The notes under the pieces: model-generated
Seen by the model: only the letters and a program-made list of their open reading frames with translations
Told to the model about the DNA's origin: nothing
Database searches by the model: none
IMG/VR virus record: IMGVR_UViG_2690315742_000006
Span: 1-22,975 of that record
Direction: 5' to 3' (one strand)
DNA length: 22,975 bases
Origin: a virus
Lineage: Duplodnaviria > Heunggongvirae > Uroviricota > Caudoviricetes
Program-made: the position numbers and the translations under genes
Part shown: positions 2,714 to 22,975 of the stretch, one piece after another
Numbering within the stretch: position 1 is the first letter of the stretch
Layout: each line of letters begins with the position of its first letter

Positions 2714-3954
2714 TGTTCTTTTCGGGATTATTTCAACGAAAAAGTGACGCGCCGGTGACCACGCCAGCAGAGCTGGCGGATGCTATCGGGCTGTCATACG
2801 ACACCTATACCGGAAAGCAGATCAGCAGCCAGCGGGCCATGCGACTGACGGCGGTTTTTTCCTGCGTCAGGGTGCTGGCAGAGTCGGTCGGGATGTTGCC
2901 CTGCAATCTGTATCACCTGAACGGCAGCCTGAAACAGAGAGCCACCGGCGAACGTCTGCATAAGCTGATCTCCACGCATCCCAATGGATATATGACGCCG
3001 CAGGAGTTCTGGGAGCTGGTGGTCACCTGTCTGTGCCTGAGGGGAAACTTTTACGCCTACAAAGTGAAAGCATTTGGCGAAGTGGCTGAACTGCTGCCCG
3101 TCGATCCTGGCTGTGTGGTACCGAAGCTTAACAGTAGCTGGGAGCCGGTCTATCAGGTCACATTCCCGGACGGCTCCACGGATGTACTGAGCCAGGAGGA
3201 TATCTGGCATGTGCGCACGCTGACGCTGGACGGACTGGTGGGGCTGAATCCCATCGCCTATGCCCGCGAGGCAATATCGCTGGCGGCAGCGACCGAAGAG
3301 CACGGGGCCAGACTGTTCAGCAATGGTGCGGTGACGTCCGGTGTGTTGCGTACAGAGCAGACGCTGTCAGATCAGGCTTACGAGCGCCTGAAGAAAGATT
3401 TTGAGGAGCGTCACACCGGGCTTGGCAATGCTCACCGCCCGATGATCCTTGAGATGGGGCTGGACTGGAAGTCGATGGCGCTGAACGCCGAGGACAGCCA
3501 GTTCCTGGAAACCCGCAAGTTTCAGCTTGAAGAAATCTGTCGTCTGTTTCGGGTGCCGTTGCACATGGTGCAGAACACCGATCGCGCCACCTTCAACAAT
3601 ATCGAAGAGCTGGGGCTGGGATTTATCAACTATTCACTGGTGCCGTATCTGACCCGCATTGAGCAGCGGATCAACACCGGACTGGTACGAAAAAGTAAGC
3701 AGGGCGTTTATTACGCCAAATTTAACGCCGGGGCGTTACTGCGCGGGGATATGAAGTCCCGTTTTGAAGCCTACGCCACCGGGATCAACTGGGGAATTTA
3801 CTCTCCTAATGACTGCCGCGACCTGGAAGATATGAATCCGCGTCCCGGTGGTGATGTCTATCTCACCCCGATGAACATGACCACGAAACCCTCCGATGGC
3901 AGTAAAGCCGGTAAGCAGAAGGATAACGCCAATGCAGACGAAACAACGTCTTGA
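2713..3954 (+). CDS. Portal protein (HK97-type)
   Basis: 413-aa ORF in canonical position after TerL; GTG start at 2713 with GGAGG at 2702-2706. Confidence 0.85.
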   Translation: MFFSGLFQRKSDAPVTTPAELADAIGLSYDTYTGKQISSQRAMRLTAVFSCVRVLAESVGMLPCNLYHLNGSLKQRATGERLHKLISTHPNGYMTPQEFWELVVTCLCLRGNFYAYKVKAFGEVAELLPVDPGCVVPKLNSSWEPVYQVTFPDGSTDVLSQEDIWHVRTLTLDGLVGLNPIAYAREAISLAAATEEHGARLFSNGAVTSGVLRTEQTLSDQAYERLKKDFEERHTGLGNAHRPMILEMGLDWKSMALNAEDSQFLETRKFQLEEICRLFRVPLHMVQNTDRATFNNIEELGLGFINYSLVPYLTRIEQRINTGLVRKSKQGVYYAKFNAGALLRGDMKSRFEAYATGINWGIYSPNDCRDLEDMNPRPGGDVYLTPMNMTTKPSDGSKAGKQKDNANADETTS

Positions 3955-4596: not shown

Positions 4597-5802
4597 ATGG
4601 CGGTTGATATTAAAGATGTCGAACAGGTCGCGCAGGAGCTGCAGCAGAAGTTTGACGACTTCAAAGCAAAGAACGACAAGCGCGTTGAGGCGATTGAGCA
4701 GGAAAAAGGCAAACTTGCCGGGCAGGTGGAAACCCTGAACGGAAAACTCAGCGAGCTGGAAAATCTCAAAAGCGATCTTGAAAAAGAGCTGCTTGAGCTG
4801 AAACGTCCGGCAGGTGGTGCGCAAAATAAACTGGCCACCGAGCATAAAGAAGCGTTTGTGGGCTTCCTGCGTAAAGGCCGTGAAGATGGTCTGCGCGATC
4901 TGGAGCGTAAGGCATTACAGGTGGGCACCGATGAAGACGGCGGCTATGCCGTGCCGGAAGAACTGGATCGCAACATTCTCAATCTGCTGAAAGATGAAGT
5001 GGTGATGCGCCAGGAAGCCACGGTGATCACCGTTGGCGGTTCCGACTACAAAAAACTGGTGAATCTGGGCGGCACGGCTTCCGGATGGGTTGGCGAGACT
5101 GACGCGCGCTCCCAGACTGCCACCTCAAAACTGGGACTGATTGAACCTTTCATGGGGGAAATCTACGGTAACCCGCAGGCCACCCAGAAAATGCTGGATG
5201 ATGCTTTCTTCAACGTGGAGGCCTGGATCAACAGCGAGCTGGCAACCGAATTTGCCGAACAGGAAGAAATTGCCTTTACCACCGGCGATGGTACCAAGAA
5301 GCCGAAAGGGTTCCTGGCGTATGAGTCCACTGATGAAACCGACAAGGTCCGGGCGTTCGGCAAACTTCAGCATATTGTATCCGGCGAAGCGACGGCAGTG
5401 ACCGCAGATGCCATTATCAAACTGATTTACACGCTGCGTAAGGCACACCGCACTGGCGCGAAGTTCATGATGAACAACAACAGCCTGTTTGCCATCCGTC
5501 TGCTTAAAGACAGCGAGGGTAACTATCTGTGGCGTCCGGGGCTGGAACTGGGGCAGCCGTCCTCTCTGGCGGGTTACGGTATCGCTGAAAACGAACAGAT
5601 GCCGGATATCGCCGCTGATGCGAAAGCCATTGCATTTGGTAACTTCAAACGGGGTTACACCATCGTTGACCGTATCGGCACCCGCATTCTGCGTGACCCG
5701 TACACCAATAAACCGTTTGTCGGTTTTTATACCACCAAGCGCACCGGCGGGATGCTGGTCGATTCGCAGGCCATCAAACTGCTGAAGATTGCAGCAGCGT
5801 AA
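4597..5802 (+). CDS. Major capsid protein (HK97 fold) with N-terminal coiled-coil scaffold (delta) domain
   Basis: 401 aa; first ~100 residues are a heptad-rich charged coiled coil (QELQQKFDDFKAKNDKRVEAIEQEKGKLAGQVETLNGKLSELENLKSDLEKELLELK) and no separate scaffold gene is present; GGAGA RBS. Confidence 0.85.
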   Translation: MAVDIKDVEQVAQELQQKFDDFKAKNDKRVEAIEQEKGKLAGQVETLNGKLSELENLKSDLEKELLELKRPAGGAQNKLATEHKEAFVGFLRKGREDGLRDLERKALQVGTDEDGGYAVPEELDRNILNLLKDEVVMRQEATVITVGGSDYKKLVNLGGTASGWVGETDARSQTATSKLGLIEPFMGEIYGNPQATQKMLDDAFFNVEAWINSELATEFAEQEEIAFTTGDGTKKPKGFLAYESTDETDKVRAFGKLQHIVSGEATAVTADAIIKLIYTLRKAHRTGAKFMMNNNSLFAIRLLKDSEGNYLWRPGLELGQPSSLAGYGIAENEQMPDIAADAKAIAFGNFKRGYTIVDRIGTRILRDPYTNKPFVGFYTTKRTGGMLVDSQAIKLLKIAAA

Positions 5803-5852: not shown

Positions 5853-6041
5853 ATGATCCTGAAACAAGATCTGAAATGGTCACCGGACGGTATGCGTGTT
5901 GAGATTATTCGGGCCGGTGAGTATGAAGATAAAGAATTACCCGAACGGGTACGCGAAATTGCCACTGCAGCTGGGATTGTCTCTGATAAGAGAACACCTG
6001 TTGCGCGGGGGGCTGATAAGTCTAAAAAACAGCATTCATAG
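5853..6041 (+). CDS. Hypothetical small protein (62 aa)
   Basis: ATG at 5853 with AGGTG 8 nt upstream; charged hydrophilic sequence MILKQDLKWSPDGMRVEIIRAGEYEDKELPERVREIATAAGIVSDKRTPVARGADKSKKQHS; no family recognised. Confidence 0.4.
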   Translation: MILKQDLKWSPDGMRVEIIRAGEYEDKELPERVREIATAAGIVSDKRTPVARGADKSKKQHS

Positions 6042-6052
6042 AGGTTGCCCAA

Positions 6053-6358
6053 ATGATGCCCACTCTGGAAGAGCTTCGTGTTCAGTGCCGGATTGATGAT
6101 GACAATGAACAGGAGAATTCTCTTCTTATGATGTATCTGGCTGCTGCCAGGGAAGAGGCTGAAAAGTTTTTAAACCGGACGCTTTACGATGAAACTGTTT
6201 CTGAGCAGGATACGACCGGGCTTGTAATAACACCTCTGATAAAACTGCGTCTTATGCAACTGGTTGGCTACTGGTACGAGAACAGGGAAATGCAGGATGC
6301 AGTGCCTGATTTTTTCTATACCGGACTGCGGATGTATCGATTTCATCCCGGAACATAG
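6053..6358 (+). CDS. Head-tail connector protein (gp6-like)
   Basis: 101 aa, first gene after the capsid gene; LEELRVQCRIDDD...YLAAAREEAEKFL resembles gp6-type connectors. Confidence 0.6.
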   Translation: MMPTLEELRVQCRIDDDNEQENSLLMMYLAAAREEAEKFLNRTLYDETVSEQDTTGLVITPLIKLRLMQLVGYWYENREMQDAVPDFFYTGLRMYRFHPGT

Positions 6359-6366
6359 GAGGATTC

Positions 6367-6705
6367 ATGCAGGCAGGAAGATTACGTGATCGTGTGGTTA
6401 TTCTGAATGCCACCACCGTTCGGTCTCCGTCAGGGCACCCTGTGGAAACAATGACGGAGGGGGCAACCATATGGGCAGAAGTTAAGGGGATCAGTGGCAG
6501 GGAGAGAATATCCGGAGGCGCAGAAACTGCTCAGGCTACAGTGAGGGTCTGGATGAGATTCCGGCGAGATGTAACAGCAACTTCATGTCTGAAAGTGCTG
6601 ACTGGTGCATTCAAAGGCGCGATTCTGAGTATAGACGGTCCGCCGATACCGGATGCTCGTGCCACACGGCTTGAGATACTCTGTTCTCAGAAGGGGAATG
6701 TGTGA
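6367..6705 (+). CDS. Head closure / head-tail adaptor protein
   Basis: 112 aa; N-terminal MQAGRLRDRVVIL is the typical head-closure signature; AGGAGG RBS. Confidence 0.6.
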   Translation: MQAGRLRDRVVILNATTVRSPSGHPVETMTEGATIWAEVKGISGRERISGGAETAQATVRVWMRFRRDVTATSCLKVLTGAFKGAILSIDGPPIPDARATRLEILCSQKGNV

Positions 6706-7492: not shown

Positions 7493-7512
7493 GGTCGTTA
7501 ATGATTTTACCC

Positions 7513-7535
7513 ACCCGCCGCTGGCGGGTTTTTTA
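7513..7535 (+). terminator. Intrinsic-terminator-like hairpin upstream of major tail gene
   Basis: aCCCGCC gct GGCGGGt followed by TTTTTT (7529-7534) then ATTTTC. Confidence 0.45.
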
Positions 7536-7551
7536 TTTTCAGGAGACGAGT

Positions 7552-8256
7552 ATGTCCTCTAATTTTGAGCGTTCGCAACTGACGAAAATTATGATTTCGT
7601 CTGCACCGGTAACAGCAGAAACCCTGGATTCTGCCAGCTATCTTGGTCTGAGCTGTACAATCAAAGAGGTGCAGTTTACCGCAGGACAAAAGCAGGATAT
7701 TGATGTCACCACGCTGTGTTCTGTTGAGCAGGAAAATATTAACGGTCTTGGTGCCGCGTCAGAGATTTCCATGTCAGGCAACTTTTACCTCAATGCTGCC
7801 CAGAACGCGTTGCGCAGTGCCTATGACAATGACACCACGTATGGCTTTAAAGTTATTTTTCCGTCAGGAAACGGATTTACCTTTATGGCAGAGGTGCGTC
7901 AGCATACCTGGTCTGCAGGAACCAATGGTGTTGTGGCTGCAACGTTTTCCCTGCGCCTGAAAGGTAAACCTGTGCTGACGACAGAGCCGCTGAAAGTGAA
8001 GGTCGATTTAAACAGCACGCTGCAGGTTTCTGCCGGAGCGAAACTCGAAATGGTGGTTGAGGCTGCCGGTGGTGTGCCGCCTTATTCTTATGTCTGGAAG
8101 AAAGGTAGTTCTCCTGTTTCCGGACAGACGGCGGCAACATTCAGTAAGGCATCAGCAGCATCAGGTGATGCCGGTGCGTATACCTGCGAGATTTCTGATT
8201 CAGCAAGCCCTGTTAACAAGGTGACCTCCACTTCCTGCACTGTTACCGTCAGTTAA
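7552..8256 (+). CDS. Major tail protein with C-terminal Ig-like domain
   Basis: ATG 7552 with AGGAG 6 nt upstream; C-terminal ~90 aa are beta-rich Ig-like (LQVSAGAKLEMVVEAAGGVPPYSYVWKKGSSPVSGQ...YTCEISD...CTVTVS), the same architecture as lambda gpV. Confidence 0.7.
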   Translation: MSSNFERSQLTKIMISSAPVTAETLDSASYLGLSCTIKEVQFTAGQKQDIDVTTLCSVEQENINGLGAASEISMSGNFYLNAAQNALRSAYDNDTTYGFKVIFPSGNGFTFMAEVRQHTWSAGTNGVVAATFSLRLKGKPVLTTEPLKVKVDLNSTLQVSAGAKLEMVVEAAGGVPPYSYVWKKGSSPVSGQTAATFSKASAASGDAGAYTCEISDSASPVNKVTSTSCTVTVS

Positions 8257-8270
8257 TGAGGATAGATGTG

Positions 8271-8642
8271 ATGACTAAAAATATCCGCAATCTGGCACTG
8301 GCAACGATGTCGGGGTTTCGCCATAAAACTGTTGATGTGCCTGAATGGGAAGGGGCAACGGTTGTATTACGGGAACCTTCTGCAGAAGCCTGGTTGCGCT
8401 GGCAGGAGATCGTTAAAGCAAAAGATGATGAGACACCGTTATCCGTTGCGGAGCGCGCCCGCCGAAATCTGGAGGCAGATGTTGAACTGTTCATTGATGT
8501 TCTGTGTGATACCGGACTGCAACCTGTATTTTCAGAGGATGATCGTGAACAGGTGATTGCCGTGTATGGCCCGGTGCATGCGCGGCTTCTTCGGCAGTCT
8601 CTGGAACTGATCAGTGATGCCGGTGAGGTTAAAAAAAAGTAG
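8271..8642 (+). CDS. Tail assembly chaperone (G-like)
   Basis: ATG 8271 with GAGGA 8 nt upstream; ends ...EVKKK* across a slippery run; position before the tape-measure gene. Confidence 0.7.
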   Translation: MTKNIRNLALATMSGFRHKTVDVPEWEGATVVLREPSAEAWLRWQEIVKAKDDETPLSVAERARRNLEADVELFIDVLCDTGLQPVFSEDDREQVIAVYGPVHARLLRQSLELISDAGEVKKK

Positions 8643-8944
8643 CGCTTCCGGGGATGCGTTTTCTGATGATGCTGGCGCTCAGGATGGGGCGCACATTGTC
8701 AGAGTTACGCCGGGAAATGTCTGCATCAGAAATCATGATGTGGGCAGAATTTGACAGGTTCAGCCCGCTGGGTGACGAGCGGGCTGATATCCGGGCTGCC
8801 CAGATAGTTTCAGCTGTTTACGGTGCGCAGGGGGTCAAAGTGCCACTGAATGATGCGCTTCTTCAGTGGGAGAAGGAGCAGACAGAAGGCACCTCAGATC
8901 CATTTGCTGAGATTGAGAAGGCATTATTTGTTGCAGCTCGATGA
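8271..8944 (+). CDS. Tail assembly chaperone G-T fusion made by -1 frameshift at 8633-8639
   Basis: The T-like ORF (8654-8944) is in the -1 frame relative to G and is open back to the slippery site; no convincing independent RBS for the downstream ORF. Confidence 0.6.
8633..8639 (+). other. Programmed -1 ribosomal frameshift slippery heptamer A_AAA_AAG
   Basis: In the G frame the codons are gtt aaa aaa aag tag; the -1 frame is open from 8639 (VALPGMRFLMM...) to the stop at 8942-8944. Confidence 0.6.
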
Positions 8945-8953
8945 TCTTTTCAC

Positions 8954-8982
8954 TTGACTGGATTATTATTCCCATTTTATTG
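8954..8982 (+). promoter_or_regulatory. Putative sigma70-like promoter for the moron
   Basis: TTGACT at 8954-8959, then a 16-18 nt AT-rich spacer and weak -10-like hexamers (TTTATT / TATTGA) at 8976-8983; not a strong match. Confidence 0.25.
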
Positions 8983-9001
8983 AGAAAGTAAGGAAACATT
9001 G

Positions 9002-9343
9002 ATGGAATTTTTACTTATTTCAATAGTTTTGGGACTAATTCCAGCTATTATTGCGAAAAGCAAAGGTCGCTCATTTTTAGGATGGTGGGTATATGGTGCG
9101 ATGATCTTTATTGTTGCTCTGGTTCATTCGCTAGTAATCCAAAGAGATGAGAAGGCACATGAACAACAAATGGTAAGCAATGGCATGAAGAAATGCCCTT
9201 ACTGTGCGGAGTTGATCAAAGAAGAGGCTATTAAATGTAAGCATTGCGGTAGTGATTTAATTTGCAATGCAGATAGTTCCGTTTCACAAAAAACGGATGA
9301 TGAATATCTTCAGGAAGCAAGGCGTAAGGCCGGACTTCTTTAA
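9002..9343 (+). CDS. Moron-encoded membrane protein with C-terminal zinc ribbon (candidate superinfection-exclusion / defence factor)
   Basis: ATG 9002 with AGGA 7 nt upstream; two hydrophobic helices ([16 protein letters not shown] and [22 protein letters not shown]) followed by CPYC-x12-CKHC; about 30% G+C in hand-counted 60-nt blocks versus about 50% or more in flanking genes. Confidence 0.6.
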
Positions 9344-9350
9344 AGAATAC

Positions 9351-9376
9351 AAAAACCGCTTCGGCGGTTTTTTTTC
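9351..9376 (+). terminator. Rho-independent terminator after the moron
   Basis: aaaACCGC ttcg GCGGTttttttt. Confidence 0.7.
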
Positions 9377-9385
9377 GTCCGGAGA

Positions 9386-12300
9386 ATGAGTGTGGCGACA
9401 TTACGTGAACTGATTATTAAAATCTCGGCAAATTCCCGGTCATTCCAGTCAGAGATCTCCCGGGCTTCGCGTATGGGGCAGGATTACTACCGTACCATGC
9501 AGAACGGAGGCCGGCAGTCCGCTGCTGCATCCCGTGAAATGCGGCGTGCACTGGCAGAAGTGACGGATCAGATAAATACAGCTAAATCTTCGGCACTGAA
9601 TATGGCGGGGGCATTTGCCGGAGCTTTTGCTACCGGTCATCTTATTTCTCTCGCCGATGAGTGGAATTCAGTAAATGCCCGTCTGAAGCAGGCTTCACAG
9701 TCCAGTGATGATTTTCAGGTATCACAACGTGAATTAATGGCAATCAGCCAGAGAACGGGAACGGCGTTTTCTGATAACGCCAGCCTTTTTGCCCGCTCTG
9801 CAGCTTCCATGCGGGAGTATGGCTACAGTTCTGAGGAGGTACTGAAAGTCACCGAGGCGATCTCCACGGGCCTGAAATTATCCGGTGCCAGTACAGCAGA
9901 AGCCAGTTCGGTGATCACGCAGTTCAGTCAGGCACTGGCGCAGGGAGTGCTGCGCGGTGAAGAATTTAACTCTGTGAATGAGAACGGCGATCGTGTTATT
10001 CGTGCGCTGGCTGCGGGAATGGGTGTTGCCCGTAAGGATCTGAAGGCCATGGCGGATAACGGAAAACTGACCGCCGATAAGGTTGTTCCTGCACTGATTA
10101 GTCAGCTTGGGGCGTTGCGTGATGAATATGCAGCAATGCCTGATACTGTTTCATCCTCTGCAACCAAAGTTGAAAACGCCTTTATGGCCTGGGTTGGTGG
10201 TGCGAACGAGGCAAGCGGAGTGACAAAGACACTCACCGGGGTGTTGAATGGTGTTGCAGACAATATTGATACCGTGGCTGCTGCAGCTGGCGCACTGGTT
10301 GCCGTCGGGGTAGCCCGATATTTTGGCAATATGGCGTCGTCTGCTGGATCTGCAACTGCCGGATTAATTACTGCAGCCAGAAACGAAGTGGCTCTTGCTG
10401 AAGCGCAACTTCGGGGGACACAGATAGCAACCGCCAGGGCGCGTGCGGCGGTTTATCGTGCGCAACAGGCGGTTGTTGCTGCTCGCGGTACCGAAAGGCA
10501 GGCCGCAGCAGAAGCGAAGCTGACAGCTGCCCAGGCGTCACTTACCCGTAATATTGCGGCCAGAACAGCTGCACAGACAACGCTGAATACTGTCACGTCA
10601 GTGGGGAGTCGTCTGTTAAGTGGTGCGCTGGGGTTGGTTGGTGGTGTGCCGGGACTCGTCATGCTGGGGGCGACGGCCTGGTACACGATGTATCAGAATC
10701 AGGAGCAGGCCAGAGAATCTGCACGCCAGTATGCCGCAACAATCGACGAAATTCGCCAGAAAACGTCGGCAATGTCGCTTCCTGAAGCGTCAGATAATGA
10801 GGAAAAGACGCGGCAGGCACTTGATGAGCAAAACAGGTTAATTGACGAGCAGAAAAGTAAGATTAAATCCTTACAGGAAAAAATTGCTGGCTATCAGTAT
10901 GTGCTGGCAAACCCGGGCTGGACAACCGATAACGGTTTTATGATTAACCACATGACGTCGGTAAAAACTGTCACAGAAGGGCTTGCAGAAGCAACAAATC
11001 AACTGGCAGTTGAACAGTCCCGTCTCACACAAATGCAGGGCAAAGCGCAATCCATTCAGGATGTGCTTGCCGGGCTGGAGGAGCGACGGGTGGCATTGAT
11101 CCGTCAACAGGCCGCGGAACAAAACAAAGCGTATCAGTCCCTGTTGATCATGAATGGGCAGCATACCGAGTTTAATCGCCTTCTCGGGCTCGGTAATGAA
11201 TTACTTCTGCAGCGACAGGGGCTGGTGAATGTACCGTTACGGCTACCACAGGCAACCCTGGATGATAAACAGCAGACCGCACTGAATAACAGCGAGCGCG
11301 AACTGGCTCTGTCCCGCCTGAAGGGGGAAGCCCGTGAGCGTGCCCGACTGGGTTATGCTGCGGATGATCTCGGCTTTGTGGGAGAGGCGTATCAGACAGC
11401 CAGACAGAATTATATCAATAACTCACTGGATGCCTGGCGAAATAACCAGGCAAATAAACCCAAAGCGCATAAAAAGACCGAAGCGGAAAAAACAGAAGAT
11501 ATTTATAAACGGCTGATTAAACAGCAAAAAGAACAAATAGCACTGGCAGGGCAGAATACTGAACTGGCTAAGATGAAATATCAGGTCAGTCAGGGCGAAT
11601 TATCAACCCTGTCAGAAGCGCAGAAAAAAACGCTTTTACAGAATGCGGCACTCATCGACCAGAAAAAGATTCGTGAGCAGCTTGCCGCGTATGAAAGCAG
11701 TCTGGCGGACAGTAATGCCAGCGCCCGGGCATCTGACGACGCGCAGTTGCTGGGATATGGTGAAGGCTCACGGATGCGTGAACGACTCCAGGAAATGTGG
11801 AGTATCCGGCAGGCGTTTGAGCAGAAAAATAACGAGCTGCTGAGACAGTATCAGGCCGGAGAAATTGAAGAAGCCCTGTGGAAACAGGAGAAAGAACTGA
11901 ATAAAAAATATCTGGAAGAGCGTCTCAGCGATCAGCAGGATTATTATGCAAAGGCTGATGCTTTACGCAGTAACTGGAATGCCGGACTCCAGGAGGGGCT
12001 GACGAACTGGGCAGACAGTGCCACTGATTATGCTTCGCAGGCGGCAGATGCTGTCGTTTCCACTATGGACGGGCTGGTATCAAATATTTCCGATGCACTG
12101 GCCGGAAATGTTGTGGACTGGAGAAACTGGGGGAGTTCAATTCTCCAGGAAGTTTCAAAAATTCTGATGAACGCTGCCATCGTTAACGGGCTGAAGTCAC
12201 TTTCCAAAAGCATGTCCGGTGCCGGAGGATGGCTTGGTACAGTCGGCGACTGGCTGTCCGGTGCAGTGGCAAACGCAAAAGGTGGTGTTTATACATCGGC

Positions 12301-12631
12301 AAATCTGAGTGCTTACAGTAACACTATTGTGGATACACCGACGTATTTTGCTTTTGCGAAAGGTGCCGGGTTGATGGGCGAGGCCGGGCCTGAAGCAATC
12401 ATGCCACTGACACGGGCAGCGGACGGCTCTCTTGGGGTCAGGGCCATTGGAAATGTGAATGGTGGCGGTGGATTTGTTTATTCTCCCGTGTATCACATCA
12501 GCATTCAGAATCAAGGGAGCAATGGCGAGATAGATGCGCGCTCAGCCAGGGGACTGGTGGATCTGATCGACAGCAGGGTTGTGTCAATTATGCAGTCATC
12601 ACGTCGGGACGGAGGATTATGCAGTGCCTGA
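9386..12631 (+). CDS. Tail tape measure protein
   Basis: 1081 aa, Ala/Gln-rich helical protein with a Gly-rich C-terminus, canonical position between G-T and M; GTG 9392 (6 nt after GGAGA) may be the true start rather than ATG 9386. Confidence 0.85.
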   Translation: MSVATLRELIIKISANSRSFQSEISRASRMGQDYYRTMQNGGRQSAAASREMRRALAEVTDQINTAKSSALNMAGAFAGAFATGHLISLADEWNSVNARLKQASQSSDDFQVSQRELMAISQRTGTAFSDNASLFARSAASMREYGYSSEEVLKVTEAISTGLKLSGASTAEASSVITQFSQALAQGVLRGEEFNSVNENGDRVIRALAAGMGVARKDLKAMADNGKLTADKVVPALISQLGALRDEYAAMPDTVSSSATKVENAFMAWVGGANEASGVTKTLTGVLNGVADNIDTVAAAAGALVAVGVARYFGNMASSAGSATAGLITAARNEVALAEAQLRGTQIATARARAAVYRAQQAVVAARGTERQAAAEAKLTAAQASLTRNIAARTAAQTTLNTVTSVGSRLLSGALGLVGGVPGLVMLGATAWYTMYQNQEQARESARQYAATIDEIRQKTSAMSLPEASDNEEKTRQALDEQNRLIDEQKSKIKSLQEKIAGYQYVLANPGWTTDNGFMINHMTSVKTVTEGLAEATNQLAVEQSRLTQMQGKAQSIQDVLAGLEERRVALIRQQAAEQNKAYQSLLIMNGQHTEFNRLLGLGNELLLQRQGLVNVPLRLPQATLDDKQQTALNNSERELALSRLKGEARERARLGYAADDLGFVGEAYQTARQNYINNSLDAWRNNQANKPKAHKKTEAEKTEDIYKRLIKQQKEQIALAGQNTELAKMKYQVSQGELSTLSEAQKKTLLQNAALIDQKKIREQLAAYESSLADSNASARASDDAQLLGYGEGSRMRERLQEMWSIRQAFEQKNNELLRQYQAGEIEEALWKQEKELNKKYLEERLSDQQDYYAKADALRSNWNAGLQEGLTNWADSATDYASQAADAVVSTMDGLVSNISDALAGNVVDWRNWGSSILQEVSKILMNAAIVNGLKSLSKSMSGAGGWLGTVGDWLSGAVANAKGGVYTSANLSAYSNTIVDTPTYFAFAKGAGLMGEAGPEAIMPLTRAADGSLGVRAIGNVNGGGGFVYSPVYHISIQNQGSNGEIDARSARGLVDLIDSRVVSIMQSSRRDGGLCSA

Positions 12632-19228: not shown

Positions 19229-22200
19229 ATGGCAGTAAAAATTTCAGGTGTACTGAAAGACGGCACAGGAAAACCGGTACAGAACTGCACAATCCAGCTG
19301 AAAGCAAAACGTAACAGTACCACGGTGGTGGTGAACACGCTGGCATCTGAAAATCCGGATGAAGCCGGGCGTTACAGTATGGACGTTGAGTACGGTCAGT
19401 ACAGCGTTATTCTGTTGGTGGAAGGATTCCCGCCGTCACATGCCGGGACCATCACAGTGTATGAAGATTCCCGACCCGGTACGCTGAATGATTTTCTCGG
19501 TGCCATGACGGAGGATGATGCCCGTCCGGAGGCACTGCGCCGTTTTGAGCTGATGGTGGAAGAGGTGGCGCGTAACGCGTCCGCGGTGGCACAGAACACG
19601 GCAGCCGCGAAGAAGTCAGCCAGCGATGCCAGCACATCAGCCCGTGAGGCGGCAACCCATGCGACTGATGCTGCAGGCTCAGCACGCGCAGCCAGCACGT
19701 CAGCCGGACAGGCCGCGTCGTCGGCTCAGTCAGCATCTTCCAGCGCAGGAACGGCATCAACAAAGGCCAGTGAAGCATCGAAAAGTGCTGCTGCTGCAGA
19801 GTCCTTAAAAAGCGCGGCAGCTACCAGTGCCAGTGCCGCGAAAACGTCAGAAACGAATGCTGCAGCGTCACAAAAATCTGCAGCCACTTCTGCATCCACC
19901 GCGACCACGAAAGCGTCAGAAGCTGCCACCTCAGCCCGGGATGCGTCGGCTTCAAAAGTGGCGGCAAAATCATCAGAAACGAGCGCAGCCTCGAGCGCCG
20001 GCATTGCAGCTTCCTCGGCAACGGCAGCAGGAAATTCCGCGAAGGCCGCAAAAACGTCTGAGACGAATGCGGATAACAGCGCACAGGCGGCAGCAGACTC
20101 ACAAACTGCATCGGCAAACTCCGCGACAGCAGCCAAAAAATCAGAAACCAACGCGAAAAATAGTGAGGCAGCAGCAAAGGTCAGCGAAACCAACGCTAAA
20201 GCGTCAGAGAACAAGGCGAAAGAATATCTCGACAAGGTCGGGGGACTCGTCAGCCCGATGACGCAATACGATTGGCCCGTTGTTACTGGTAATGAGTCTT
20301 TTTACATAAAGATCGCGAAACTTTCCGATCCCGGAAGCGGCAATTGCCATGTAACGCTAATGGTTACTAACGCTGGTAACTACGGCTCCCCTTACGGAAA
20401 CATTGACTTTATCGAGATCTCGGCGCGCGGTCTGCCTTCTTTGCTTAGTGCGGATAATGTTTCTCGTCATCTGAGTATACGCCGCTTAGGGTCAACCGGG
20501 CTGACCGATAACAACCAGATGCGTTACGGCCTGGTTAAAGGTGACGGCTTTATTGAGGTTTGGGCCTTCCAGCGCGCATTTATCAACGGCGCAAAGGTTG
20601 CGGTACTGGCGCAGACGGCACGCACGGAATTATACATTCCAGACGGATTTGTTAAGCAAACCGCCGCGCCTTCTGGATATGTTGAAAGCCCCGTTGTAAG
20701 GATTTACGACCAGTTAAACAAGCCGACTAAAGCAGATTTGGGTCTTTCTAATGCTATGCTTACAGGCGCTTTCGGTCTTGGCGGTAGCGGGATATCAACA
20801 AACGGCAAGATGAGCGATGTAGAGATCTTAAAAGCTCTGCGTGACGAAGGTGGTCATTTCTGGCGCGGTGATAGGCCGACCGGAAGCACGGCGACCATTT
20901 ATAGCCACGGTTCTGGTATATTCTCGCGGTGCGGCGATACGTGGTCAGCGATCAATATCGACTACTCAACCGCGAAGATTAAGATCTATGCCGGCAACGA
21001 TGCCCGGCTTAACAACGGGACTTTTAGCGTCAATGAGCTATACGGCTCGGCAAACAAGCCGTCGAAATCGGATGTTGGACTTGGCAACGTAACGAACGAT
21101 GCGCAGGTAAAAAAAACCGGCGATACAATGACCGGTGACTTGACAATCAAAAAAGGTACACCGTCAGTCTTCCTGCGGGCAGACAGTGGAGTCACCGCTT
21201 TGCGGTTTTATACTGGCGATAACACAGAGCGCGGCATAATCTATGCTGGTCCTAACACTGATTCGCTTGGCGAAGTTCGCATTAGGGCTAAAAACGCAAA
21301 AGGTGAAACAAACGGTGATCTTATTGTTCGCCACGACGGGGTGGTTGAGGTTCAGAATCTCACAGCGGCTAAAAAAGTCAAAAGCGTAACCGCAGAATTT
21401 GCAAACACAAGCACTAGCTCCGATGATACCACGGTAAATATCAAAGGATCACAGCATACGCCTTTGGTTTTAACGCGCAATAACACAATTAAAAATTTAT
21501 CCATTGGATTTAAGGTTGATGGCGTTGACCAAAAATATCTCGGCATATACGGTGACGGTGATTTGTATTTTGGTAGTTATTCTGACCACACAAAAAACAG
21601 TAGAGTAATTACACAAGCAAAACTAGATAGCGGGTTAACGGTAGGCGGTAAAACAACCTTTTCTGACCTTGCTACATTCAACGCAGGTATATCTGGAGCA
21701 ATTGAACCTGAAAGCATTTCTGCAGTGACTGTTGATCTTAATAATCTGACCATAAAAGGCACAGATAAAGGATCAGTTAAATACTATCAATGCAGAACTG
21801 CCGGAGGTGGTGCAAATATTACCAATAAGCCTGACGGCGTAGGCGGCAACTTTTTGCTTCGTGTAGAGTCAATTCGTAAGGTTAGTGATTCAGATTATAT
21901 AAACATGCAAACGCTGATTAGCGGCGACAAAGGACGCGTGCATGTTCGTTTTGTTACTAATGGTAATTGGACAGCATGGCGTGAGGTAGTTGTTTCAGGA
22001 TGGAATCAGGATGTAACCGTCAGGTCGTTAACCTCGACGACTCCATCAAAATTAGGTGGCGGGCGGATTGATGTGCTTGGAAGTACGTCAGATTATGGCA
22101 GCATGAATTGTACCGTGCGCGGTGTTGATAGCAGCGGAACTAATTCTGCGTGGTCAGTAGGCACATCAGTAGACACTGGCAAAACGTTGTATCTGAAAAA

Positions 22201-22975
22201 CCACAGAACCAGTTCACAAGTGCTGATAAGTGGCGATACTGGATCTATTAAGCTACAAAATGGTAATGCAAACAAGGAGTTAGCGCTAACCGAAGATTCA
22301 GTTACCTCAAACGCTGACATTATCCTAAAAAATAGTGATGATGGCCCCCGTCTTATTATAAAAAACTCAAACAATTCGGCGCAGTCGTGGAGTGTTACGG
22401 TGTGGGGTAAAAGCGGAAGGGAAAGCATTTTTGAGGTTGGTAACAGCAACGGTTACATGTTTTACGCACAAGAAACGGCATCGGGTGGCAGAAATTTTGA
22501 CTTTAACGGTGATGTTACATGTAAGACACTATACCAAACTTCTGATCAAAGCCTTAAAGACAACATTAAGGTTATAGGTGACGCTACCGAATCCATCCGT
22601 AAAATGAATGGGTACACATACACGTTTAAGGACGACGGCCTGCCTTATGCTGGCGTTATTGCACAAGAAGTAATGGATGCGCTGCCTGAAGCGATAGCGT
22701 TTACCACTCTTTACGGTAAAGAGCTACAGGGGCCAACAACTGACGGAAACGTGTTACGCGAAGAGATGAAGTGCCTTAGCGTTGACTATGCGGCGGTGAC
22801 TGGTTTACTTGTTCAGGTCGCCCGTGAAACAGATGATCGCGTTACCGCGCTGGAAGAGGAAAACACAACGCTACGTGAAAATCTGGCAACAGCAGACACC
22901 CGGATCAGCACTCTGGAAAATCAGGTAAGCGAACTGGTTGCACTTGTCCGGCAGTTAACAGGAAGCGAACATTGA
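19229..22975 (+). CDS. stf: Side tail fibre protein with C-terminal intramolecular chaperone (peptidase S74-like) domain
   Basis: N-terminus MAVKISGVLKDGTGKPVQNCTIQLKA... recognisable as lambda Stf; Ala/Ser/Thr-rich repeat region; GDTMTGDLTIKKG fibre motif; C-terminal ...TSDQSLKDNI...NGYTYTFKDDGLPYAGVIAQEV plus terminal coiled coil; stop coincides with the window end. Confidence 0.8.
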   Translation: MAVKISGVLKDGTGKPVQNCTIQLKAKRNSTTVVVNTLASENPDEAGRYSMDVEYGQYSVILLVEGFPPSHAGTITVYEDSRPGTLNDFLGAMTEDDARPEALRRFELMVEEVARNASAVAQNTAAAKKSASDASTSAREAATHATDAAGSARAASTSAGQAASSAQSASSSAGTASTKASEASKSAAAAESLKSAAATSASAAKTSETNAAASQKSAATSASTATTKASEAATSARDASASKVAAKSSETSAASSAGIAASSATAAGNSAKAAKTSETNADNSAQAAADSQTASANSATAAKKSETNAKNSEAAAKVSETNAKASENKAKEYLDKVGGLVSPMTQYDWPVVTGNESFYIKIAKLSDPGSGNCHVTLMVTNAGNYGSPYGNIDFIEISARGLPSLLSADNVSRHLSIRRLGSTGLTDNNQMRYGLVKGDGFIEVWAFQRAFINGAKVAVLAQTARTELYIPDGFVKQTAAPSGYVESPVVRIYDQLNKPTKADLGLSNAMLTGAFGLGGSGISTNGKMSDVEILKALRDEGGHFWRGDRPTGSTATIYSHGSGIFSRCGDTWSAINIDYSTAKIKIYAGNDARLNNGTFSVNELYGSANKPSKSDVGLGNVTNDAQVKKTGDTMTGDLTIKKGTPSVFLRADSGVTALRFYTGDNTERGIIYAGPNTDSLGEVRIRAKNAKGETNGDLIVRHDGVVEVQNLTAAKKVKSVTAEFANTSTSSDDTTVNIKGSQHTPLVLTRNNTIKNLSIGFKVDGVDQKYLGIYGDGDLYFGSYSDHTKNSRVITQAKLDSGLTVGGKTTFSDLATFNAGISGAIEPESISAVTVDLNNLTIKGTDKGSVKYYQCRTAGGGANITNKPDGVGGNFLLRVESIRKVSDSDYINMQTLISGDKGRVHVRFVTNGNWTAWREVVVSGWNQDVTVRSLTSTTPSKLGGGRIDVLGSTSDYGSMNCTVRGVDSSGTNSAWSVGTSVDTGKTLYLKNHRTSSQVLISGDTGSIKLQNGNANKELALTEDSVTSNADIILKNSDDGPRLIIKNSNNSAQSWSVTVWGKSGRESIFEVGNSNGYMFYAQETASGGRNFDFNGDVTCKTLYQTSDQSLKDNIKVIGDATESIRKMNGYTYTFKDDGLPYAGVIAQEVMDALPEAIAFTTLYGKELQGPTTDGNVLREEMKCLSVDYAAVTGLLVQVARETDDRVTALEEENTTLRENLATADTRISTLENQVSELVALVRQLTGSEH
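19590..20230 (+). repeat. Ala/Ser/Thr-rich low-complexity region with recurring K-x-S-E-T-N-A motif inside the tail fibre gene
   Basis: Motif copies encoded near 19838-19861, 19961-19987, 20045-20071, 20131-20157 and 20169-20198 (AKTSETNA, AKSSETSA, AKTSETNA, KKSETNA, KVSETNA); about 57% G+C in a hand-counted 60-nt block. Confidence 0.6.
22541..22972 (+). other. Predicted self-cleaving intramolecular chaperone domain of the tail fibre
   Basis: Ser (22541-22543) and Lys (22556-22558) in an S-D-x-S-L-K-D context, followed by ~140 aa ending in a heptad coiled coil (LEEENTTLRENLATADTRISTLENQVSELVALV). Confidence 0.55.

Follow-up and report, generated by a model that had tools for sequence, protein, structure and literature searches.

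A zinc-ribbon membrane-protein moron between the tail chaperone and tape measure genes of an Escherichia coli prophage, and its possible role in blocking phage genome entry

The short AT-rich gene that separates the G-T tail assembly chaperone from the tape measure gene in this E. coli prophage, an element whose head is of the HK97 type and whose tail is of the lambda type, is well supported by genome comparison as a moron, dispensable and horizontally exchanged. Its 113-aa product is predicted to be an inner-membrane protein in which a two-helix hairpin is followed by a four-cysteine ribbon and a short helix at the C terminus, and profile comparisons suggest that it is a distant relative of Imm, the superinfection-immunity protein of phage T4. 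The protein probably protects the lysogen from other phages, and we give a probability of about 0.5 to a block of genome entry that acts at the tape-measure channel. Morons located at this junction are a textbook case. The features discussed here are collected in Table 1, with positions counted in the window, i.e. the whole stretch of 22,975 nt that was analysed.

Table 1. Features of the chaperone/tape-measure junction and its neighbours in the window
Feature	Position	Strand	Basis or match
Tail assembly chaperone G	8256..8642	+	phrog_344, E=2.8e-45
T part of the G-T chaperone	8654..8944	+	phrog_14766, phrog_337, E about 1e-39
Mosaic segment, cassette-bearing vs cassette-free prophages	8910..9353	.	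pairwise alignment with empty site L003
Candidate sigma-70 promoter	8941..8969	+	comparison of related loci
TTGACT hexamer	8954..8959	+	read in the sequence
RBS AAGGA	8990..8994	+	read in the sequence; 7 nt before ATG 9002
ORF, 113 aa, 'zinc ribbon domain-containing protein'	9002..9343	+	WP_000394908.1, phrog_8436
Two-helix membrane domain	9005..9136	+	hydropathy; AlphaFold helices
Predicted zinc ribbon CPYC-x10-CKHC	9185..9259 (residues 62-86)	+	PF13248, E=1.1e-8
C-terminal helix	9296..9328 (residues 99-109)	+	conserved in the 113-aa subfamily; AlphaFold model
Intrinsic terminator hairpin and T8 run	9351..9375	+	folding, covariation
Tape measure protein	9392..12631	+	phrog_339, E=0; PGAP coordinates

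The T/tape-measure junction was found in 902 of 5426 complete E. coli genomes, and the gene is carried by only 44-51 of these, i.e. about 850 junction-bearing genomes are without it. At the gene-free junctions the site is about 400 nt shorter while the flanks are near-identical, and two genomes hold a decayed copy of the gene. The sequence-only reading had already called the gene a moron, and this is borne out by its presence and absence among near-identical prophages and its low G+C in every lineage, as well as by conserved promoter-like and terminator elements and by relatives at other classic moron positions (detailed below).

Base composition sets the segment apart from its surroundings. 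Specifically, positions 8945-9353 have 36.9% G+C, whereas the adjoining 2 kb reach 50.7% on the upstream side and 53.5% on the downstream side. They are the lowest stretch in the 23-kb window, with only 0.04% of all 409-nt windows being equally poor in G+C. An earlier hand count of about 30% for 8941-9060, with higher values in the neighbours, agrees with the values of 28.3% for 8941-9000 and 30.0% for 9001-9060. Low G+C of the ORF is common to all 49 distinct lineage variants (0.36-0.43, compared with 0.47-0.58 in the flanks).

Alignment with the empty site L003, which shows 96.8% identity in the left flank as far as 8909 and 100% identity in the right flank (9354-9700), places the breakpoints at 8909/8910 and 9353/9354. 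The exchanged segment, which is 444 nt long in the window and 43 nt at the empty site, starts inside T and takes in the last 11 T codons. The AT-rich insert had been recognized from the start, but the limits first given to it (8945-9380) have to be replaced by those of the alignment. Neither direct nor inverted repeats were found flanking the cassette, and a transposon-like insertion is therefore ruled out.

The signals around the gene call for a more differentiated description. The TTGACT previously noted as a -35-like hexamer is indeed present, but it is probably not a working -35: a consensus promoter scan called no promoter there, the best -10 at hand (TTTATT, at 16 nt spacing) is without an A at position 2, and both L010 and the 86% lineage have TTTACT in its place. 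Comparison points elsewhere, as 67 of 82 related loci share the pattern [GT]TGA[CT]N-17-TA[GA]GAT at 56-63 nt before the ATG, and the 86% lineage has ATGATC-17-TATGAT at the equivalent place. We infer that the promoter supported by comparison is ATGATC-17-TATTAT, rather than TTGACT, with a -35 (ATGATC, 8941-8946) that overlaps the T stop codon, a 17-nt spacer and a -10 (TATTAT, 8964-8969). This candidate is weak in the lineage of the window, where its -35 matches 3 of 6 positions. The ribosome binding site noted earlier is present as AAGGA, 7 nt before the ATG.

At the other end, the terminator is formed by AAAAACCGC-TTCG-GCGGTTTTT and a T-run (dG -12.2 kcal/mol, z -3.1). Across lineages 98.5% of cells are paired, with compensatory changes in 4 of 9 pairs, a score reached by none of 500 shuffles, and a hairpin with a T-run follows the ORF on its 3′ side in every lineage. 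An identical hairpin exists in the cassette-free L003, and copies of the gene at other junctions carry their own terminator. As it is kept at empty sites, the terminator is part of the junction and not specific to the insert. Therefore, of the 'self-contained' cassette with a clean terminator (9351-9376) that had been proposed, the RBS and ORF of its own and the hairpin with its T-run stand, whereas the terminator is held in common with empty sites and TTGACT is probably not its -35; the term is only partly right. An Rfam scan gave nothing near gathering scores, and its weak matches stem from the terminator.

The neighbouring genes were re-examined as well. The A8 run at 8633-8640 in G is a likely -1 frameshift site into T, judging by the sequence GTTAAAAAAAAGTAG and by the frame relation between G (frame 0) and T (frame 2). 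The T reading frame ends with a stop codon at 8942-8944, in agreement with the G-T stop first read at 8944. The start of the tape measure gene had been placed at ATG 9386 and is to be corrected: GTG 9392 is probably the start, because GGAG (9381-9384) is 7 nt away from it and because PGAP annotates 9392 and the homologues begin MATLREL. Hydrophobic segments of the tape measure protein encoded in the window lie at residues 294-312 and 408-426, and such segments are thought to insert in the membrane.

The gene product itself can be described in some detail. A dN/dS of 0.08 at a dS of 0.82 (ORF against its 86% variant) indicates that the gene is under purifying selection. In the AlphaFold model, helix 1 spans residues 2-20 and helix 2 residues 25-45, connected by the basic loop KSKGRS, and Kyte-Doolittle hydropathy identifies hydrophobic residues 1-19 (2.1) and 28-46 (2.0). 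The 113-aa ORF of the sequence-only reading is confirmed, and its two transmembrane helices are borne out as hydrophobic segments modelled as helices; its predicted zinc ribbon is also matched by Pfam (Zn_ribbon_3, PF13248, 34.7 bits with a cut-off of 27), but with a spacing of x10 and not x12 between CPYC and CKHC. All four cysteines (C65, C68, C79, C82) are retained without exception in sets of 51 and 83 homologues, the model has a beta hairpin in the ribbon, and the motifs GxIPAxIAxSKGRSF and WWxYG are invariant across homologues. The charge bias (acidic N-tail, basic loop, mixed post-helix segment) makes the topology, and hence the side of the membrane on which the ribbon lies, ambiguous; family members with a third helix lean weakly to a cytoplasmic ribbon.

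A confident match to a structural or assembly protein had been named in advance as evidence against a moron with a defence role, and profile searches (Pfam, PHROG) gave none for the 113-aa protein, the only PHROGs matched being of unknown function (phrog_8436 among them). PADLOC yielded no convincing defence model, only weak and spurious ribbon matches (HEase, LmuB; E>1e-3), and NCBIfam only weak ribbon-level matches (TcaA, rad18). A Foldseek search of viral structures with the AlphaFold model returned only other uncharacterized zinc-ribbon phage proteins, and a sequence search of the PDB only ribosomal bL32 ribbons (E about 0.1).

Relatives had to be sought at the protein level, because a megablast search with the cassette in 50,697 phage records gave no match. 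The first protein search produced 1623 related protein clusters, with members in E. coli, Salmonella, Klebsiella, Enterobacter, Cronobacter and Pseudomonas prophages and in mobile elements from many phyla. In all 80 closest viral contigs the site is the T/tape-measure junction, as it is for a relative in Salmonella FSL SP-016, and a shorter-loop homologue in Pseudomonas phage vB_PaeS-D14C adjoins the tape measure gene. Relatives also occur at the L/K and K/I junctions, at a prophage end after the tail spike and beside an S24 repressor, and many copies lie outside recognizable prophages, in integrase, toxin-antitoxin and mercury-resistance islands. Given this spread of relatives over other junctions, prophage ends, immunity regions and non-phage DNA, an obligatory functional pairing with the tape measure gene is rejected as a rule. 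A conserved uncharacterized partner of ~105 aa (in some pairs a second small membrane protein), which the window does not have, accompanies the gene at 13 of 80 genomic loci, and lipoprotein genes adjoin several homologues. Core identity amounts to 40-60% even among very distant phyla (Proteobacteria, Acidobacteriota, Chloroflexota, Planctomycetota, Bacillota and others). Literature searches found no papers on this zinc-ribbon moron family.

The link to T4 Imm runs through a protein that carries both domains. More specifically, gp065 of Pseudomonas phage YMC11/02/R656, encoded at a T/tape-measure junction, combines a match to PF14373 (E=1.6e-18) with the ribbon. Full-length family-to-family alignment with hhalign reached 99.6% probability (E=6.7e-25) and is collinear through both helices and the ribbon, a score mostly carried by the ribbon; N-terminal domains only gave 19% (P=0.0012). 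An HMM built from Imm-type membrane domains scored p=2.8e-6 on the N-terminus of the window protein (4.7e-16 on T4 Imm) and fell below 1e-3 for 83 of 120 family members vs 3 of 120 reversed controls, and reciprocally the family's own HMM did not detect T4 Imm (p=0.036). PF14373 matched neither the window protein (E<=1) nor 50 scanned homologues of its type, so that among the 51 scanned family members only the Pseudomonas protein has it. The invariant K21 and W28 of the window protein align with R33 and W50 of T4 Imm, mutations of which weaken exclusion, and Imm binds the T4 tape measure protein (bioRxiv 10.64898/2026.03.06.709160). Taken on profile evidence, the 113-aa protein is probably a short-loop, divergent member of an Imm_superinfect plus ribbon superfamily, with a similarity of the membrane domain alone to Imm_superinfect that is weak but above controls.

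In what is the most likely mode of action, an entry block, low-level transcription of the gene would start in the lysogen from its own weak promoter, and read-through would transcribe it late in infection. The product would reside in the inner membrane and keep incoming siphophages from delivering their genomes, through interference with the channel formed by the tape measure protein, much as T4 Imm does by binding its tape measure protein. Genome entry is also where the only two characterized relatives act, T4 Imm being related by domain and HK97 gp15 by position, and the distant kinship with Imm lends indirect support. Several observations weigh on the other side, namely the failure of PF14373 to detect the window protein, the 19% obtained for the membrane domain, the partner in 13 of 80 loci, and the weak promoter, ambiguous topology and PADLOC result described above.

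A core conserved to this degree across phyla is unexpected for a protein that has to track fast-evolving tape measure proteins, and suggests rather a conserved cellular partner or an intrinsic activity. The product could accordingly be a membrane protein of lysogenic conversion whose benefit is unrelated to phage genome entry, for instance protection against a pore-forming toxin, bacteriocin or tailocin, or an influence on an envelope, metal or stress pathway exerted via a conserved host membrane partner. Such a role is unlikely on balance: the conserved core does suggest a conserved target and not variable phage proteins, many copies sit in islands, often with the partner, and no defence-system model matches, but the 80 closest viral copies and the homologues in YMC11/02/R656 and vB_PaeS-D14C all adjoin the tape measure gene, and the only characterized relatives act on genome entry.

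Position inside the late operon, in the same orientation, raises the question of whether the gene is transcribed mainly with the late tail operon and serves the phage's own cycle (shielding the membrane of the producing cell from its own tape measure protein, stopping injection into a dying cell, or tuning lysis). Co-inheritance with the tail genes over 40-90% divergence in 80 of 80 viral loci fits that proposal, as does the weakness of the lineage-specific promoter in the window. It is nevertheless improbable, as about 850 near-identical E. coli prophages do without the gene, most lineages conserve a promoter-like element directly ahead of it, and copies exist in early and immunity regions and outside phages. 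Quite improbable, too, is an abortive-infection sensor or effector, in which the hairpin would permeabilize or depolarize the membrane upon phage perturbation and kill the cell. Small two-helix membrane proteins on mobile elements, some paired with a second small membrane protein and near toxin-antitoxin modules, would suit it; the window gene, however, stands alone, bears no likeness to the known abortive-infection membrane effectors in PADLOC, and the protein's similarity to Imm speaks for a block at entry. A structural or assembly role in the tail, suggested by nothing but the position inside the tail gene cluster, has a negligible chance given a membrane hairpin, no structural family match (phrog_8436 being of unknown function), absence from most close relatives, and relatives at unrelated positions and in non-phage DNA.

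On a wider scale, the two-helix plus zinc-ribbon proteins, the short-loop form missed by Pfam among them, might form one pan-bacterial superfamily of membrane 'entry-immunity' proteins of T4 Imm stock, spread over prophages, integrative islands and cassette arrays of many phyla and including many two-protein modules with the ~105-aa partner; we regard this as possible but doubtful. If it were true, an unrecognized and very widespread class of defence would act on the tape-measure channel. To our knowledge, HK97 gp15 is the only chaperone/tape-measure moron with a known function, and the gene in the window represents a much larger, uncharacterized family. Should the entry block be true, (i) the mechanism linking T4 Imm to the tape measure protein would extend to temperate siphophages of clinical Enterobacteria, (ii) a simple sequence marker would predict prophage-mediated resistance to therapeutic phages and (iii) the contribution of the zinc ribbon to an Imm-like hairpin would be directly testable. 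Should it be false, conservation across phyla points to a conserved membrane target worth finding.

Among known systems, P22 SieA and the lipoproteins Llp, Cor and Ltp are also envelope proteins made by prophages, preventing genome entry or use of the receptor, but they have no sequence or architectural similarity to the window protein, and the lipoproteins act at the outer membrane or the cell surface. Pseudomonas phage JBD26 has a moron, Tab, that targets the tape measure protein, but both the protein and its site differ from those described here. HK97 gp15, the first moron to be described, is a superinfection-exclusion protein that blocks genome entry in a tail-dependent manner (Cumby et al. 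2012; PMC3594210). Its gene occupies the same slot between G-T and the tape measure gene, with a hairpin terminator after it, just ahead of the tape-measure RBS, and both genes are AT-rich additions to phages with an HK97-type head module that encode small inner-membrane proteins (predicted for the window). At the protein level the two differ, gp15 being a YebO-like protein (PF13974, E=1.2e-8) of 62 aa with one hydrophobic helix and no cysteines, and the window protein having 113 aa, two helices and a zinc ribbon. PF13974 does not match the window protein, which is unlike gp15 in sequence, length, helix number and motifs; the original caution that the two may belong to different families was justified. 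The function of gp15 has been demonstrated, whereas that of the window protein is proposed.

T4 Imm, an early gene product of a virulent myovirus, is without a zinc ribbon, and the inter-helix loop of the window protein is 10 residues shorter than the Imm type and lacks its HxN...LNL segment. The two nevertheless have in common a two-helix membrane core, a proline-containing helix 1 ([LI]PxxIA), a basic loop residue and a G-W motif that opens helix 2. For gp065 of YMC11/02/R656, the name 'superinfection immunity protein' is a domain annotation only, and no experiment on it was found in the literature. At 195 aa it has a longer loop with a true PF14373 match and a different C-terminal domain, and it is 32-37% identical to the window protein. 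It shares with the latter the hairpin, a ~25-residue linker and the ribbon CPYCAExIKxxAIKC(K/R)xCG, and its gene likewise separates the tail chaperone gene from the tape measure gene and has a terminator after it.

Nowhere in the window is G+C lower than in the AT-rich insert that separates the T part of the G-T chaperone from the tape measure gene: 36.9% over 8945-9353, with 50.7% on its upstream and 53.5% on its downstream side. The sequence-only reading, which had put two 60-nt blocks at about 30% (28.3% and 30.0% by exact count), was right about the low G+C. The ribosome-binding site and 113-aa frame that it described are also present (AAGGA lies 7 nt 5′ of the ATG at 9002 and the ORF ends at 9343), and the ORF is a real, constrained gene, with dS 0.82, dN 0.07 and dN/dS 0.08 against an intact variant of 84% DNA identity. 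A search of the cassette for RNA families found none. As had been proposed, two hydrophobic segments occur in the protein (Kyte-Doolittle 2.1 and 2.0). An AlphaFold model (83-sequence alignment, mean pLDDT 75) places them in helices 2-20 and 25-45; behind these it shows a linker helix (50-59) and a ribbon folded as a beta hairpin (62-85), and then, after a disordered stretch, a helix at the C-terminus (99-109). The match to Pfam Zn_ribbon_3 exceeds the cut-off, so that the zinc ribbon itself holds, but with a knuckle spacing of x10 and not x12; the charge bias of the protein does not settle on which side of the membrane this ribbon lies.

An E. coli CREC-2 prophage is 100% identical to the window across the 1.1 kb compared (8600-9700), and it joins an HK97-type head module (P27-family small terminase, portal, HK97 protease and major capsid protein) to a lambda-type tail module (V, G, G-T, H, M, L, K, I, J and Lom). 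G ends in an A8 run (8633-8640) followed by its stop codon, and this run is expected to be the G-T frameshift site, where a -1 slip would lead into the T frame (KVALPGMRFLMM...), and the frame relation of G and T fits such a shift. Within the T coding region there is also a perfect 10-bp inverted repeat (8760-8787; TCAGCCCGCT / AGCGGGCTGA, 8-nt loop) with no T-run behind it. For the tape measure gene, a start at ATG 9386 had been read; although this is possible, GTG 9392 is more probably the start, since the GGAG at 9381-9384 lies 1 nt from the former and 7 nt from the latter, PGAP annotates 9392 and homologues begin MATLREL. The sole other low-GC part of the window is its 3′ end (21201-22975, 42-46%), within or beyond the tail-fibre gene that follows Lom, and may be a further mosaic or cargo region.

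Coordinates of the genes, signals and related loci discussed in the text
Feature	Locus	Coordinates	Basis or remark
Major tail protein	Window	7501-8256	PHROG match
Chaperone G	Window	8256-8642	PHROG match
T part of G-T	Window	8654-8944	PHROG match
Tape measure protein	Window	3′ of cassette	PHROG match
Weak candidate promoter (likely)	Window	8941-8969	
Terminator	Window	9351-9375	Hairpin and T-run
Terminator	L003, E. coli empty site	654-675	
Terminator	L002, comparison locus	399-423	
Homologue, L/K junction	L094, Edwardsiella	6001-6330	
Homologue, K/I junction	L091, Atlantibacter	6001-6555	
Partner ORF	L110, L118, L119, L123, L128, L131-L135, L138, L145, L147	~4650-5000 in most	
Partner ORF, further locus	L188	6001-6592	

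The window gene is dispensable, AT-rich and carried by prophages at moron sites, in agreement with its original classification as a moron. Specifically, the G-T/tape-measure junction occurs in 902 of 5426 complete E. coli genomes, just 44 of which contain the full 1.1-kb query, while in the remainder the site is ~400 nt shorter; the cassette itself is present in 51 E. coli genomes. In an alignment with an empty site, the left breakpoint (8909/8910) falls within T, 11 codons short of the stop, and the right one is at 9353/9354. Filled and empty sites do not differ at all in the right flank (100% identity), to which the whole terminator hairpin belongs, and therefore the exchanged unit consists of the T 3′ end, the promoter region and the ORF, while the terminator is part of the junction. 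The self-contained cassette of the sequence-only reading is thus only partly borne out. No flanking repeats were found around it. Two genomes, E. coli 2014C-3075 (locus L004, ~700-1040) and JNEC-KY180, hold a decayed copy (87-91% identity) that RefSeq leaves without annotation; it is frameshifted by a 1-nt deletion and has lost the first CxxC to a deletion of 6 nt.

The signals around the gene were compared across viral contigs, in the 80 loci closest to the window's (protein identity 62-100%), throughout which the order V-G-T-gene-tape measure is constant and the ORF is AT-rich (G+C 0.36-0.43 vs 0.47-0.58). The gene, encoding two hydrophobic helices and a four-cysteine ribbon, is bracketed by conserved promoter-like and terminator elements. 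At the 5′ side, 67 of 82 loci share [GT]TGA[CT]N, an unconserved spacer of exactly 17 nt and TA[GA]GAT, an arrangement that begins 56-63 nt 5′ of the ATG and whose -35 overlaps the T stop codon. The same position reads ATGATC-17-TATTAT in the window and ATGATC-17-TATGAT in an 86% sister lineage. The TTGACT proposed as a -35 does exist, but it has no -10 that would serve, close relatives read TTTACT there, and the promoter scan does not call it; together with the conserved position of ATGATC-17-TATTAT, this places the likely promoter, a weak candidate, at 8941-8969.

The terminator of the sequence-only reading is confirmed as AAAAACCGC/TTCG/GCGGTTTTT with a T-run (-12.2 kcal/mol, z = -3.1). A hairpin and T-run stand 5′ of the tape measure RBS in every lineage, with stems whose sequences vary (CCGC/GCGG, CCCCGC/GCGGGG, CCTCAC/GTGAGG) by compensatory changes; pairing holds in 98.5% of cells, double changes affect 4 of 9 pairs and none of 500 shuffles attains the covariation score. 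This terminator is retained base for base in ~850 E. coli prophages without a gene there, and HK97 gp15 is likewise trailed by an analogous one. Being kept with or without the gene, it is a covarying terminator within the late tail operon irrespective of the moron, and it may adjust the amount of V/G/T relative to that of downstream tail proteins, or may serve as right-hand homology for cassette exchange.

Relatives lie elsewhere too. The Edwardsiella and Atlantibacter homologues occupy the L/K and K/I junctions of lambda-type tail operons, are AT-rich and carry their own hairpin terminators (to which at least the K/I copy adds a plausible promoter), and thus several intergenic slots of the tail operon are used by one cargo gene. 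Distant members are found at a prophage end behind the tail spike, beside an S24 repressor of a Pseudomonas prophage, at a Sphingomonas prophage edge and in a non-phage islet of Pantoea. The family is therefore behaving as a mobile cargo gene and not as a tail component. In the Pseudomonas phage vB_PaeS-D14C (BK061477), the chaperone/tape-measure gap (3012-3776) holds two unannotated genes, for a BamE-like lipoprotein (lipobox LSGC, PF04355 E=1.5e-4) and a zinc-ribbon membrane protein (3465-3776), and the one CDS annotated in the gap (3373-3549, opposite strand) is likely to be spurious. Homologues in Yersinia, Xenorhabdus (two loci), Serratia and Sphingomonas likewise have lipoprotein ORFs beside them.

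The window protein belongs to phrog_8436, a PHROG of unknown function, and the 1623 related clusters in the protein collection are all named merely 'zinc ribbon domain-containing protein'. Residues 1-86 form the conserved core, followed by C-terminal tails ranging from none to ~100 residues. Homologues from phage records (32-37% identity) come from temperate Pseudomonas phages, and those of YMC11/02/R656 and vB_PaeS-D14C also sit between tail chaperone and tape measure genes. The YMC11/02/R656 protein has an Imm_superinfect domain (PF14373, E=1.6e-18) followed by the same ribbon type, a common architecture annotated as 'superinfection immunity protein'. Comparison of the two families gives 99.6% probability (E=6.7e-25), collinear over both helices and ribbon with a single 10-residue gap in the inter-helix loop; with the ribbon removed, a weak signal is left (hhalign P=0.0012, probability 19%). 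When an HMM was built from Imm-type membrane domains, T4 Imm scored 4.7e-16 and the window N-terminus 2.8e-6, with values <1e-3 for 83 of 120 family members vs 3 of 120 controls of reversed sequence; conversely, an HMM of the window family does not detect T4 Imm. Judged from these profiles, the window protein appears to be a divergent, short-loop relative of the Imm-plus-ribbon superfamily. It was not assigned to PF14373, as the Pfam model does not match the E. coli-type proteins. The invariant K21 and W28 align with R33 and W50 of T4 Imm. According to a 2026 preprint, these are the two Imm residues at which mutation weakens exclusion, and Imm binds the T4 tape measure protein (bioRxiv 10.64898/2026.03.06.709160).

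By analogy both with its distant domain relative T4 Imm and with HK97 gp15, which occupies the same slot, the window protein would be made in the lysogen, reside in the inner membrane and block genome entry by disturbing the channel formed by the tape measure protein of the incoming phage; residues 294-312 and 408-426 of the window's own tape measure protein are hydrophobic segments. This whole explanation is given a probability of about 0.5, while its moron and membrane-protein part alone is very probable; the original finding is real and was mostly read correctly. Entry blocking is weakened by the faint match of the membrane domain to Imm and by unexpectedly high conservation across phyla, the core being found at 40-68% identity in many of them (scan of one genome per species). 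A further point against it is the partner gene of relatives elsewhere, an uncharacterised ORF of ~105 aa that lies directly against the zinc-ribbon gene, or overlaps it, in 13 of 80 genomes of distant phyla, the neighbourhood of these 80 loci being otherwise not conserved. The partner has an N-terminal helix, then PIGAxPEGKTLxIxRLNKTxFIDSADAMC...LLCRG...LPYS...ST.GK.Y, finds no match in Pfam or PADLOC, forms a family of 701 clusters and occurs in integrase, toxin-antitoxin and mercury-resistance islands. The pair looks like a mobile two-gene membrane module; the window copy is without the partner.

The layout of HK97 is that of the window, namely T, gp15, terminator and tape measure, but gp15 is a 62-aa, YebO-like (PF13974) protein with one helix, whereas the window protein has 113 aa, two hydrophobic helices and a ribbon. 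Thus the two morons have the slot in common and not ancestry, and the kinship once considered possible falls away. The window gene adds an occupant to a known moron hot spot and comes from a large uncharacterised family whose link to superinfection immunity is credible but unproven.
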